From contig NC_043008.1 of assembly GCF_006345805.1 (NCBI RefSeq), positions 30,380,001-30,444,000 on the forward strand: a stretch of DNA of 64,000 bases, in the 5' to 3' direction. The position numbers and the translations under genes are program-made. Every line of letters begins with the position of its first letter. Position 1 is the first letter of the stretch. The notes below the pieces were generated by a model that was given only the letters and a program-made list of their open reading frames with translations, was not told the DNA's origin and ran no database searches. Positions 23,531-63,707 of the stretch are shown here, piece after piece. The DNA is from Octopus sinensis. Taxonomy: Eukaryota.

Positions 23531-25889
23531 AAATATATAGATGTATATGTGTGTGTATATATATATATATATATATATATATATATATATTAGATATATA
23601 TATCAATATATATATATATATATATATTTTAGATATATATATCAATATATATATATCAATATATATATATATATATATATATATATATATAATATATATA
23701 TATATATATATATACATATATATATAAAGACAAAGAGGCAGGAGAGACATACTTGCTTATCTGAAGTGTATTCGTACACTCGTTGGATTGCGGGAGACAT
23801 TAATCAATACAAAAATATAAAAGAAAAGAATTAGCAGCAGTACTGCAGTATGATTTTCTATATATATTCGTCAATGTGTATGCGTGTGTCCGCGTGTGTC
23901 TGTGTGTTTGTGAGTGTAAACACAGATAGGTATATATATATATAAATATATATATATATGTATATATATATGTGTGTGTGTGTGTGTATGTATATAGACT
24001 CTTATTTGTGCATATATATATATGCACTGTTATTTATCTGACTGGTTTCATTTCAATGCTCGTCTCTACGTATCTCATACATATGTTTCTGCATATATTT
24101 CTATACTTGTATAGTCCTATAACTTGTATTTCTCATAAGAAATACGTAGTGTGATTACACCATATTCATATACATGTCTGTAGCTATATATTCAAATTAT
24201 ATATCTGTGTGCATCTGTGTGTGTGAGGGTTGTGTATGTGTGTGTGTCCATGTGTGCATGCGTGTGGTATAGTCTGTGTACATAGACTTAGTTGGCAGGT
24301 TTGCAAGATTTGGATATATCTGATGCGTTCTCTCTAACATAAGTAAATAATTCATGAAAAATATGTACGGCTGCGCATCAGTGGCTGTGTTGTTTTCACT
24401 CTATTTGTCCATCTAACTATCTCCGTCTGCTCTTTTATACACAGACACACTCACAGATACACGAGAATATAATACTTGACACACATATATACTTATATAG
24501 GAGCATATATGTATATATATATACGCACACACACACTCACACACATACATGCACATACACACAAACACACACATATATATATCCAAACATATGTGTATAC
24601 ATGCATATGTATATACACTCACACATAAAATTATATAGCAATGACCGCAGAGGCTTGACTAAAACGAGTAAAAGAATATATATATATATTTCGTTTATTT
24701 ATATGGTTTGCAAGATTCTTTATGCGAATTTGTGTGTTGAAGCATATTTTATTGTGTCTGGGGTGAGCCATTCTGTTTTTATAACTTATTAATTAACACA
24801 TTCACAGGTTCGATTTCTCCTCTGTTAATTATATATTTTTGACACACTCAGTATGATGAAAGAAGAAGAGATGGGTGCCGATTGTACTTGAAAGTAAGTA
24901 GTACGAAAGCAACAACGTTTTAAGAGTACATGTTGCCGTGGTGGGATAAAAAGGGAGAAATCAGAAATAGAGGCACAGTGATTGTAGATAACACAAATTA
25001 TGGTTGAAGAGACGAAATACTTTTGTATTTAACACAAGGGCGTAGATATTGAGGCATAACTGAGAGTGTAAGGGGATTCAGACTGAATATACTAAGTATG
25101 CACACAGAAACACAATTACACTTAGATATGTATGTGTGTGTATGTATTCTTGCATGTGTGTGTATATGCTTGTGTGTGTTAGCGCGTATGTGCGTTTGTG
25201 TGCATACAAATACAGATTAATATAGCTATGTATAAGTATATACATATGAATTTAAATCTGCATATACTTATGCACATAGGTTATTCGGGATAAAATTGAC
25301 AGAAAATGAAATCATATGAACCCATTCGAAAGTTAAATTTAAAATAAAAAATCGGCTTGACTATGGCTATATGTATTCATAAAATGGATATATATATATA
25401 TATATATATATATATATATATATATATATTATATATATATATATATATACAGATAGATAGATAGATAGATAAATTATAAAGGATGGGAATGATGGTGATG
25501 GTGGTGGGGGTGAGTGTAGTTTGATGTAGATTATGGTGGTGTCGGTTACGGCGGCGGCGGTGGAGGCGAATTGTAGGGGTAGCTGGTGGAAAATATAAGT
25601 ATAAAAATCACCGGAAAACGGGAAAAGTAAATTTGTAAAACCTATATACACACACACACACACACATACACACACACACACACACATACACACACACACA
25701 CACACATACACACACACACATATATATATATATATATATACAAAGAGCAATAAAGATTCAAGTTAATTTAAAAAATTTACTTGAATATGGTACCTAACTT
25801 AGATGCACCAAAAAAAAACTATACTGATTTAACAATACAGTAATGTGGGGTGATTATAAGCGAGAAAGAAGCAACAAGAATGGATAGGT

Positions 25890-25980
25890 TTTTAGTACGA
25901 TCGTTTCATACAAGGACAGGTTTTATTAAAAGTTGCAAAGATTACAGCATATAAACGAGTCCCGTACTCATCAGCTAAAA
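25890..25980 (-). ncRNA. Type I hammerhead ribozyme (inverted copy)
   Basis: Exact reverse complement of 27090-27180. Confidence 0.8.
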
Positions 25981-27089
25981 TACATGTAAGTTCTCTAGAC
26001 ATCCTAGTGTTTGAGGCTATACTATGATAGACAATCCCCTAACACCTTGTAAATGATCTTATAAGATTTGACCTGTAGTCAGTCAATGTATGAATAATAA
26101 CGACAACTCCTTAAGACAATAAAATGAATAAATTAAATAAGTAAATTTTTAATGACTTTTTGATAAGATTATACTTAGATTTTCCTAATGTATTTTCTGG
26201 TGATTTTAGCATCTGACCCCTTAACCCCTGACTGTGTTATCTCTTTAGATTCTCTTTAAACTCATAGCTGATTTCAACAGCAATAAATTAACGGTTTACT
26301 GGTCAAAGAATAATATTCTCCTCTAGTCCTAGATGCCTGTTGATTAAAACCAGACTTACAGTCTACTAACTCTTCTGTATAGCTAGAACCCTCTTTTTTC
26401 TTTTTCTTTTTTTCCCTTCTTTCCCTATTTCTTTCTCTTCTCTTTTTTCTTTTTCTTCTTCTTATTCTCTGTTTCCTTTTCTCTTCTCTTTTAGTCCCCC
26501 TCTCCCCCCCCCTTTTTTGCTCCCTCCTCCATTATTTTCTCTCTTTTCTTCTATTCCCTTCTCTATTCTTGGCCGATCTAGTAAGCCCTTCAGCCTTTAA
26601 GAGTAAATAGCTACAGCCTCTTGTGAATAGCAGTAATGTGACTAATGTGGCAAACACCTAATCATATAACAAGGATTGATACCTACCTCATTGTGTTCAA
26701 CCATTGTAAAATTTATCGCCTGTAAATATGAAATTCATCTCCATTTCTCTGGAAATTTACATCTACACCATTGGAATCTGTGCATATATACAAAGGATTA
26801 ATTCACCCTCTCTGTAATGCTAATAAGCAGGAATTGAGACCCACCTCGTTGTAATTAACAATGGATAAATTTGTCTTCTGTGAGTATATAATCCCTCATC
26901 ATATCTATGGAAATTCATATGGATTAGGTCACCTTCTCTGTGATGCTATCAAAACTTTTTTAAAATTCTGTGATAAGACTGTACATCATCTTTAAAGAAC
27001 TTTAATGAACTTTAGAAATCTGTTTAATTATCTACATTACTTCATGAGTATAGCCTCAAACACTAGGATGTCTAGAGAACTTACATGTA

Positions 27090-27180
27090 TTTTAGCTGAT
27101 GAGTACGGGACTCGTTTATATGCTGTAATCTTTGCAACTTTTAATAAAACCTGTCCTTGTATGAAACGATCGTACTAAAA
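27090..27180 (+). ncRNA. Type I hammerhead ribozyme
   Basis: Stem I TTTTAG/CTAAAA; core CTGATGA (27096-27102); stem II GTACGGGAC/GTCCTTGTAT (one bulge, G.U closing pair); GAAA (27163); stem III within the palindrome ACGATCGT; predicted GUA cleavage after 27174. Confidence 0.8.
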
Positions 27181-61987: not shown

Positions 61988-62082
61988 CTTCATCATCATC
62001 ATCATCATCATCATCATCATCATCATCATCGTCGTCGTCGTCGTCGTCGTCGTCATCATCATTTCCATCGTCATCATCACCA
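61988..62082. repeat. (CAT)n(CGT)n compound trinucleotide microsatellite
   Basis: Direct reading. Confidence 0.95.
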
Positions 62083-63324
62083 CCTCATCATCATATTCTT
62101 CTTTTTCTTCTTCTCTTCCTTCTCCTTCTCATCCACCTTCCTCAGTTGCAATCTTACTCATACTTTCATGCATCACTTCTCGATTCCCTTTTATCTAAAA
62201 AAAAATTATAACCAGGTTTTCGCTTACATCATGTGCTTCAATAAACGCGTTTATCTACATGTGTATATATTGCGTATGCATATTGTTTGTCAACATCTGT
62301 ATGTAAATCTGTGTCTCTATGAATGACTGGTTTTAGTTGCTTTTGCAGTGAGTGATATGTCAATTTTTCTCAGATCAACCATAATAAAGGAATGCTTTGA
62401 TCAAAGGCTATTTATCTGTAACCTTTATTCAGGTATCTTTTCTATGGTACAACATAATCCAATAAGGACCATCGATTTTTAAAAGGCAGTATGGGTGATT
62501 TGGAAGATATTTGTAGGTGGTTGATTGACCTCGCTGGTTCGCATTACTATCCACCTGTATATGAGAGACATTTTGTGTGATTTCTTCATTGTAATAGTTT
62601 ATTTACCCTACTCAGTAGCATATTTCCAAAGAAAATACGTTAAAAATACTTTGTGCATTGATATATATGTAAACACACACACACACACACACACACATAT
62701 ATATATATATATATATATATATATATGTATATGTGTGTGTATATATATATATATATATATATATATATATATATATATATATATGTGTGTGTGTGTGTGT
62801 GTGTGTGTGTGTGTGTATATACAAATCAGACCTTCATATGTAGATAAATGTTTCTATGTACCTGAATGTGTATGGACGTCTGTATGTTTAACGATGTGTG
62901 CTTCTAATATTTGTGAGTTCATAAATGCATGCGTATCTATGCTTTCTACATATATTTATATCTTATGTTATACAGACATCTACATCTTATGTATATTATT
63001 TTACATTTGAGGAGACTTTATTCTAAAGTGCAATTGCCCATTTTTAATAAAGTTTATTTCATTATACTTAGCCTAAATCTCCGTCTAAAAATTCTGCCCT
63101 CATCGGTAACTACTCCAGTTGTATGATTAATGGTGACATAAACTTGTAACAATGTGATATTCCAGAGTGTAACTAATCACCCACACACACACATGTATAT
63201 ATATGCTTATATGTATCAATATATATATATATACACACATACACACATATATATGTGAGTATACATATATACATATATATACTTATATATATACATACAT
63301 ATAAATACATATATATATATAATT

Positions 63325-63707
63325 ATAATAAAGGGTTATTTGCAACAAGTTGCTTAAACCACATATCGAAAATATTAGAAATAGCAGCCATATAGGTTAC
63401 CATTACTATTACTACAAAAATAAGTCTCCACAAACAACAGTATTTGTAACCCGTATATGGTAAAGAGAACGGTTACAAATACTGTTGTTTGTGGATACTT
63501 ATGTTTGTAGTAATAGTAATGGTAACCTATTTGGCTGCTATTTCTAATATTTTCGGTATGTGGTTTAAGCAACTTGTTGCAAATAACCCTTTATTATTAT
63601 TATATATAATTTTTACCGAATATGGTCCTTTCCATACCGAAAAACTACTAGGTGAAATTTACTAATTTTATTAAATTAACTATATTTCACCCTTTATATG
63701 TATCGAA
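63325..63707. mobile_element. Foldback element: 127-bp arms, 19-nt spacer, 110-nt unpaired extension
   Basis: 63325-63451 pairs with 63471-63597 (4 mismatches); the extension has the hairpin GGTGAAAT/ATTTCACC (63651-63691); (TA)n flanks. Confidence 0.85.

Follow-up and report, generated by a model that had tools for sequence, protein, structure and literature searches.

A 64,000-nucleotide stretch of the Octopus sinensis genome (NCBI RefSeq assembly GCF_006345805.1, contig NC_043008.1, positions 30,380,001 to 30,444,000 of the forward strand; hereafter the window, numbered from its first letter) contains four foldback elements that sit in (TA)n repeats. We named them E1–E4 in window order. 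It is slightly better than an even chance that all four are 3′-end fragments of four separate (TA)n-inserting families of Penelope-like elements (PLEs), each made of two head-to-head, 5′-truncated cDNAs. For E1 and E2, the motifs and junctions that we describe below make the assignment as PLE-type 3′ ends very probable. The foldback layout itself is already known, so these elements represent new families and testable detail, not a new class. What sets them apart is the longer tails, the match to TA inside the element where the short end lies, and a geometry with which PLE inversion can be tested.

Geometry of the Foldback Elements

The window is 35% GC, with AT and AC microsatellites throughout. 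A local foldback scan of the window recovered only E1–E4 and a fifth element, E5 (46106–47313). The four inverted repeats described in an earlier note on this DNA are all present, with slightly corrected coordinates. The arms of E1 (25855–26023 and 27047–27215) are identical at 168 of 169 positions and enclose a spacer of 1023 nt. The E2 arms (28663–28752 and 28772–28858) are 19 nt apart, and their core contains one substitution, a 3-nt indel and a 2-nt indel. The core arms of E3 (39467–39522 and 39540–39595; 53/56 identical) flank a 17-nt spacer. A gapped alignment extends this pairing to 39426 and 39642 (84/96 identical). The E4 arms (63314–63451 and 63471–63608) match at 133 of 138 positions across a 19-nt spacer. 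These values agree with the spacers claimed previously, which were 17–19 nt in three elements and about 1 kb in one. When E5 is included, three of the five foldbacks have a 17–19-nt spacer, and the others have 80 and 1023 nt. Arm pairs differ by 1–5 substitutions or indels, with CpG-type changes among them in E2 and E3. The four elements are also mutually unrelated, as had been stated. No pair among E1–E4 aligned beyond shuffled sequences after multiple testing (20 comparisons including E5, and a further 24, of which the best stood at 8/300 shuffles).

A one-sided tail together with an inverted, 5′-truncated copy is present in all four elements. The short (tail-less) arm adjoins (TA)n directly in three of them, and the E3 arm reaches its run via a diverged 27-nt stretch. 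In every case the short arm stops where the tailed copy has an internal TA motif, which is TATA in E1, ATAT in E2, (TA)5 in E3 and (TA)4 in E4. Such TA 4-mers occupy 2–8% of positions within these elements. In the window as a whole, about 1% of positions have a run of (TA)4 or longer no more than 6 nt away in a given direction; the share rises to 3% for 20 nt and to 15% for 160 nt. Counted from the internal TA motif, the tails measure 114 nt (E1), 147 nt (E2), approximately 88 nt (E3) and 98 nt (E4). The layout proposed in the note, with one arm at or near (TA)n and the other extended before it meets (TA)n, is thus retained, and the extensions are revised from about 110–150 nt to 88–147 nt. 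Since the TA run was used to define where the tails of E3 and E4 stop, this part of the layout is circular for these two elements.

Each tail contains a small hairpin (E1, 25756–25786; E2, 28528–28563; E3, 39642–39674; E4, 63651–63691). The positions given previously stand for E3 and E4. The E1 hairpin lies 10 nt to the left of the 25766–25797 reported, and that of E2 has been corrected. When the best 45-nt window on the better strand was compared with shuffled sequences, hairpins as good or better were obtained in 4/60 (E1), 13/60 (E2), 20/60 (E3) and 1/60 (E4) shuffles. On the last 75 nt, the z scores were −2.8, −1.0, −2.1 and −3.0 for E1–E4, respectively, and 7 of 86 other TA-adjacent stretches, used as a control, reached z ≤ −2. 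This 75-nt window was chosen after the first test, and for E3 it stopped 9 nt before the TA run. The tail hairpins are modestly beyond chance, which gives modest support to the suggestion in the note that the terminal hairpin may be a recognition signal for the reverse transcriptase.

Hammerhead Motifs and Variable Junctions in E1 and E2

E1 begins at a (TA)n run (25720–25740, from the sequence and the run list). The tail (25741–25854, − strand) leads into the left arm, a short inverted copy (25855–26023, −) whose internal TATA occupies 25855–25858. The body (26024–27046, +), delimited by joints, loose ends and homology searches, is repetitive and holds a polypyrimidine tract (about 26395–26560) and an internal 93-nt duplication. 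The right, tail-less arm (27047–27211, +) is the 3′ end of the long copy, and (TA)n at 27212–27240 separates it from a long interspersed nuclear element (LINE).

A strict type I hammerhead descriptor gave two matches in 64 kb, one in each arm of E1 (27090–27180, +; 25890–25980, −), and no match in 30 of 30 block shuffles. The motif has a stem I of 6 bp, a stem II of 7 bp, a palindromic loop III and a T before GAA. Both arms therefore contain the hammerhead motif, and the predicted ribozyme would cut after 27174, 37 nt ahead of (TA)n. A relaxed descriptor adds E5 and one weak site, and 9 of 30 shuffles also yield one match. Rfam gave no match at gathering score across the window. At E ≤ 10 over E1–E2, it returned only miRNA-type hairpin models far under their cut-offs and no hammerhead family, so the ribozyme call is that of our own descriptor.

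Contigs from public sequencing runs suggest which arm the E1 body belongs to. (AT)n stands directly before 25855 in at least 19 contigs, which fixes the short end of E1. At least two contigs enter the body at 26023/26026 from other sequence. A diverged contig (X17 record 17, aligned across 25789–26023) covers tail and arm and then runs 154 letters beyond 26023, and one contig joins 25877 to 26918. On this evidence the body probably belongs natively with the tail-less arm on the right, which would place the tail on the short inverted copy. The depth slope along the body points weakly in the same direction, and depth cannot rank the parts.

In E2, the (TA)n run at the tail end (28504–28515) is backed independently by at least 35 contigs that match from 28504 and have differing flanks before it. 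The tail (28516–28662, −) sits on the long copy (28663–28771, −), which comprises the arm, with ATAT at its outer end, and the 19-nt spacer. The short inverted copy (28772–28850, +) is tail-less. A hammerhead 3′-half motif occurs three times in the window, two of them in the arms of E2. In the long copy it lies at 28732–28720, and the copy is truncated within ribozyme loop 2. In the short copy it lies at 28792–28802, 48 nt ahead of (TA)n (28851–28890). Contigs continue beyond 28773 into sequence absent from the window (at least three in run X17 and at least two in X19). By eye, these read-through letters hold a core that departs from CUGANGA by a single change, together with a stem II of 7 bp and a stem I of 5 bp. 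Since these contigs appear to supply the 5′ half of the ribozyme, E2 would be a longer element cut inside the ribozyme loop. The other E2 joints are 28558/28667 on opposite strands (X15 and X1) and 28678 to 28799. The junction overlap in E2 is 2 nt.

Part of 25741–28860 is present in 20 of the 21 sequencing runs listed. For four of the 21, all contigs were aligned to 25741–28850 (16379, 10045, 250 and 219 records). All bins were covered, and in two deep runs the summed depth ranged from thousands to hundreds of thousands. Single contigs there have a depth of about 20–60, and the high summed depth marks repeats, not copy number. As for the variation among copies that the note had wished to see examined, E1 and E2 each have further copies whose joints fall elsewhere, with the short end at 25855 and the tail end at 28504 fixed. 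E1 and E2 are therefore neither miniature inverted-repeat transposable elements (MITEs) of fixed structure nor assembly artefacts.

E1 and E2 thus combine features expected of PLEs. The hammerhead in the pseudo-long terminal repeat (pLTR) is whole in both arms of E1; for E2, the putative 3′ half is in the window and the 5′ half in contigs. Variable 5′ truncation with fixed 3′ ends is seen in both elements, as is the Hydra-clade pair of (TA)n target and canonical hammerhead. Naiad elements, which are also marked by an N-terminal endonuclease and by CxC and DKA motifs, are without canonical hammerheads, and E1 and E2 are therefore not Naiads.

The one-sided extension and terminal hairpin also resemble the ends of DIRS and Helentron elements. 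It is nevertheless highly improbable that the four are DIRS-type tyrosine-recombinase or Helentron-associated elements, or palindromes from later DNA repair. The internal complementary region of DIRS elements was not found in E1, where the longest match is 10–12 nt and AT-rich. Helentron-associated elements have short subterminal inverted repeats and insert at TT; here the arms are 56–169 nt long and the flanks are (TA)n. The hammerheads and variable junctions of E1 and E2 likewise argue against these readings.

E5 (45844–47505; strand not assigned), identified by arm alignment and protein matches, is a coding PLE foldback with arms at 46106–46695 and 46776–47313. Together, the arms and the 80-nt spacer code for the C-terminal portion of a PLE-type protein (E = 1e-46), with a remnant of the open reading frame (ORF) on both arms, and long relatives of this protein carry RVT_1. 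From its motifs we take E5 to be of the GIY-YIG type. The relaxed descriptor places a minimal hammerhead at 47412–47455. E5 is not TA-flanked; its left arm has gained a (TAT)n run of about 120 nt, which lies within the arm and away from the arm end. As an internal control, E5 shows that PLEs make the foldback layout in this genome.

Mode of Inversion

The outer ends of each foldback are both element 3′ ends. We propose that a PLE protein supplied in trans would nick both strands of a (TA)n run and that each nick would prime reverse transcription on element RNA. The near start site would be the internal UA run, which in E1 and E2 lies 37–48 nt to the 3′ side of the predicted ribozyme cut. Some 90–150 nt beyond it, immediately past the 3′ side of the small hairpin, would be the far start site. 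Each cDNA would stop early, and the truncated ends of the two would be joined via a 1–2 nt overlap. The outcome would be two arms, a spacer equal to the difference between the two stop points, and a tail on the copy that used the far site. The tail itself may come from read-through that reaches the beginning of the following tandem unit. It sits apparently on the short copy in E1 but on the long one in E2, which is consistent with two start sites and with the published description of a tail at either end. The hammerhead cut and the start sites in E1 and E2 are predicted, and we infer the steps that go beyond geometry and motifs.

The same PLE ends could have been inverted by snap-back, which we hold to be rather unlikely as the explanation for all or most of the four. 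Here, the far-site cDNA would stop, fold with a 17–19-nt loop and copy itself to the internal TA run, where it would anneal to the (TA)n on the opposite side of the break. The 17–19-nt spacers in three of the five foldbacks suit such a loop, and all four short ends have an internal TA run that would serve as joining microhomology. E2, with its tail on the long copy and its 2-nt junction overlap, is also compatible, and self-priming was proposed in 2013 for PLE inverted junctions in A. vaga (PMC3846280). Against it, spacers of 80 and 1023 nt also occur, and the short end is also a plain 3′ end, as Hydra-1_Obim stops 34 nt past the ribozyme in ATATA (by eye). A further objection comes from E1, whose inverted short copy appears to carry 114 nt that the long copy lacks. 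Snap-back copies only what the first cDNA holds and so cannot place a tail on the shorter copy. A shared snap-back or double-priming mechanism had been put forward in the earlier note. Double priming can give E1 and snap-back cannot, and the idea as such is already published. Twin priming and snap-back may both operate.

As a more general conjecture, which we regard as doubtful though worth stating, TA-targeting PLEs would invert by twin priming from both nicked (TA)n strands with two fixed start sites, one at the UA run and one past a conserved hairpin. Octopus would be rich in such stubs with long tails and long-looped hammerheads, and many of the "MITEs" in mollusc libraries would be stubs of this kind. 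How PLEs form inverted structures is named as an open question in the literature (PMC8557442). High-copy, short, TA-anchored stubs offer a cheap test, as snap-back forbids a tail on the shorter copy and twin priming allows it; E1 appears to be such a case. If the proposal is true, the tail side and the spacer-length spectrum are a direct genomic read-out of the PLE integration step. For annotation, such stubs resemble MITEs but would be retroelement debris. A literature search pairing "twin priming" with "Penelope" and "GIY-YIG" returned no paper; older key papers, Repbase and Dfam may hold the idea or the families.

Assignment of E3 and E4 and Points Against the PLE Reading

The tail-less arm of E3 (39432–39522, −) extends from a TA run (39432–39440) to the end of the core. 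The remainder (39523–39719, +) comprises the spacer, the second arm (diverged to 39620), the internal (TA)5 at 39621–39631 and the tail, and (TA)n follows. In E4, the tail-less arm (63314–63451, −) begins inside the flanking TA run. The other half (63452–63706, +) consists of the spacer, the arm ending in (TA)4 at 63601–63608, and the tail, which meets (TA)n at 63707–63722. The E2/E3 alignment hinted at a decayed ribozyme half in E3, which we did not accept (8/300 shuffles in one of 24 comparisons). A 12-mer at the E4 junction (63464–63475) also occurs just upstream of the Hydra-1_Obim hammerhead. We took it as chance, the flanks being unlike. Copies of E4 numbered zero in viral contigs and zero in metagenomes.

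Several points weigh against reading all four elements as inverted PLE ends. A set of 151 PLE-type proteins and a profile built from 70 of them gave no match in E1–E4. Pfam searches of six frames of the E1 body gave nothing below E = 0.06, and one frame of the body had no homologue among 65 candidates. The contig details cover 15 of 132 joints, 12 of 28 joint inserts, 24 of 1530 loose ends and 32 of 27147 pieces. The assignment of the E1 body, though likely, draws on at least two loose-end contigs, one further contig, one joint and the depth slope. Among the matches listed, no contig spans any whole element. E3 and E4, which are probably PLE ends, are placed there by analogy, and the contig evidence covers E1 and E2. 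Strict, relaxed and half-motif descriptors found no hammerhead piece in E3 or E4 within the window; these copies may be truncated on the 3′ side of the ribozyme or come from a clade that lacks one. In both, the palindrome has TA at either side, the flanks expected of a MITE that duplicates TA. Two independent stop points give no explanation for three spacers of 17–19 nt. The tails, at 88–147 nt, exceed the 30–40 nt described for PLEs (PMC8557442, PMC3846280). Finally, Poseidon PAc starts reverse transcription without homology to the cut DNA (PMC11167929), unlike the internal TA match here.

The coding searches bear on classification as well. A search for reverse transcriptase (RT) plus GIY-YIG, which the note had recommended for parent elements, found neither in E1–E4 themselves, and E2–E4 are too short to hold such an ORF. 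With no coding remnant found in E1–E4, no clade is assigned; the Hydra clade is marked by RWK, DKT and CxCX5C motifs and by RT phylogeny. The 1-kb body of E1 is without coding homology in these searches, so E1 is likely a non-autonomous family.

The flanks of E3 and E4 also allow a mixed reading, in which E1 and E2 are PLE ends and E3 and E4 are symmetric, MITE-like palindromes that duplicated TA within TA-rich DNA. Their "tails" would then be unrelated flanking sequence that reaches as far as the following TA run. We consider this unlikely. Both tails contain a hairpin, with z scores that few of the control stretches reach, like E1, E2 and the Hydra consensi. The internal TA motif is shared with E1 and E2, which are not fixed palindromes. 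We know of no DDE-family terminal motif that E3 or E4 would match. For the MITE reading speak the TA runs on both sides, the hammerhead piece that was not found, and the 15% of positions with a TA run within 160 nt. In addition, terminal-inverted-repeat elements and MITEs are reported in O. vulgaris (PMC13282606).

A second way in which the PLE reading could fail is that the palindromes are assembly or chimeric-read artefacts. Such structures do trouble short-read assemblies (PMC8557442), and no contig among the matches listed spans a whole element. We regard this possibility as negligible. The arms of each element differ independently by 1–5 substitutions or indels, the same opposite-strand joint occurs in two runs of differently labelled organisms, and arm ends abut (AT)n in at least 19 contigs. 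The two outcomes named in the note as fatal to its proposal were true MITEs of fixed structure and artefacts of assembly. The first does not hold for E1 and E2, which have variable junctions and read-through, and the arm differences and the shared joint argue against the second. The reading of the elements as TA-targeting PLEs is supported for E1 and E2, given their hammerhead motifs, variable junctions and the read-through of E2, and would extend to E3 and E4 by analogy.

Neighboring Sequence

From 25720 to 29294, E1, the LINE, E2 and the next stretch are chained with a TA run between each, which marks an insertion hot spot. The LINE (27241–28503, +) lies outside E1 and E2, is 5′-truncated, has TA runs at both ends and contains an RT remnant (RVT_1, E = 2e-11); by its motifs we take it to be CR1-like. 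The TA-flanked stretch of about 390 nt next to E2 (28891–29294) contains a 62-nt direct repeat (28912–28973 and 29225–29285, 82% identical) whose second copy ends at (TA)5. It is possibly a direct-tandem PLE-type end. Two identical 66-nt stretches, 42296–42361 and 43267–43332, both stop directly at TA repeats and may come from another TA-targeting family, as 5′-truncated ends. One copy of a 407-nt direct repeat (42862–43268 and 43740–44146, 97% identical) precedes the second stretch. A weak PLE-type RT remnant lies at 55700–56050 (−).

LINE remnants with RT or zf-RVT matches occur at 6670–8811 (−) and 53605–54747 (−). The first adjoins (TAT)n runs and is presumably Dong/R4-like, judging from its motifs. 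A likely exon of an immunoglobulin-domain gene is present at 11300–11510 (+; Ig_3, E = 3e-4, under the cut-off), so the elements may lie in an intron. A family resembling short interspersed nuclear elements (SINEs) has many copies (2053–2691, 42517–42751, 47840–48043, 49728–49906 and others), in tandem with a period of 250 at 2056–2535. A search for the SINE motif gave no viral contig, no genome and one metagenome contig (L001:1786–1833), which shares a SINE core of about 50 nt with the window and nothing else. A 134-nt unit is repeated in three tandem copies, 98% alike, at 2920–3323. A transposon remnant in the window is 68% identical to an Octopus sinensis protein.

Comparison with Known Systems

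In L1 twin priming, two target strands prime two cDNAs, which are joined by microhomology to give an inversion. In L1 the second primer anneals at an internal site upstream, so that a separate segment becomes inverted. Unlike this, both cDNAs of E1–E4 would be started close to the 3′ end, and the product would be an inverted duplication.

The PLE anatomy and the link to microsatellites that the note had taken as established agree with published accounts. An inverted 5′-truncated copy and a 30–40-nt tail at either end are described (PMC8557442, PMC3846280). Naiad and Hydra elements, which have both been reported from Octopus, are known to target (TA)n (PMC8557442). The (TA)n target hides target-site duplications (PMC8557442). 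PLE ends are reported to carry hammerheads in their pLTRs with a long stem II, also in opposite-strand pairs 100–700 bp apart (PMC4209133). In a curated annotation of O. vulgaris, 31 PLE families are listed as recently active, alongside 65 MITE families (PMC13282606).

The Penelope elements of A. vaga and endonuclease-containing (EN+) PLEs resemble E1–E4 in their head-to-head inverted 5′-truncated copy, one-sided tail and palindromic junctions (PMC3846280). They also share TATATATA in the pLTR and non-coding spacers carried between pLTRs (PMC3846280, PMC8557442). The arms of E1–E4 differ from this generic layout in ending at an internal TA motif and in the recurring 17–19-nt spacer.

Poseidon PAc of Anolis was studied in vitro in 2024. 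It is a predicted dimer that cleaves both strands of the target, extends both of them and starts reverse transcription at two tail-bounding sites near a stem-loop (PMC11167929). Two RT start sites bounding the tail, a stem-loop start, cutting of both strands and AT-rich targets are thus points of likeness to what we propose for E1–E4. PAc cuts at ATT (PMC11167929), whereas the near end of E1–E4 matches the (TA)n target. Also unlike PAc, the hairpins of E1–E4 are AT-rich and lie 12–45 nt from the end.

Naiad_Obim, Naiad_Ovul and Naiad_Omin share with E1–E4 the (TA)n targets, the inverted copy, the tail and the presence in Octopus (PMC8557442). They have no canonical hammerhead in this account, and the 3′ ends given there for Naiad_Obim and Naiad_Ovul are unlike E1–E4 by eye.

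The closest known system to E1–E4 is the Hydra clade of PLEs with a C-terminal EN, whose members have canonical hammerheads and (TA)n targets and are present in Octopus (PMC8557442). Hydra-1_Obim, from Octopus bimaculoides, has no sequence match to E1–E4 beyond the 12-mer at the E4 junction, and six short E1–E4 motifs, searched on one strand each, had no match in the consensi of PMC8557442, where line breaks may split them. Ribozyme loop 2 is about 40 nt in E1 and E2 versus 3–10 nt in Hydra, and the tails of E1–E4 are longer than those of Hydra. As in E1 and E2, a canonical type I hammerhead is near the 3′ end and the target is (TA)n. Many Hydra elements have a T before GAA, as in E1, and one consensus is noted with an inverted 5′-truncated copy (PMC8557442). 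By eye, three of the six new consensi end with the hammerhead, 22–30 nt, an internal TATAT and a 54–71-nt tail with a small hairpin (PMC8557442).

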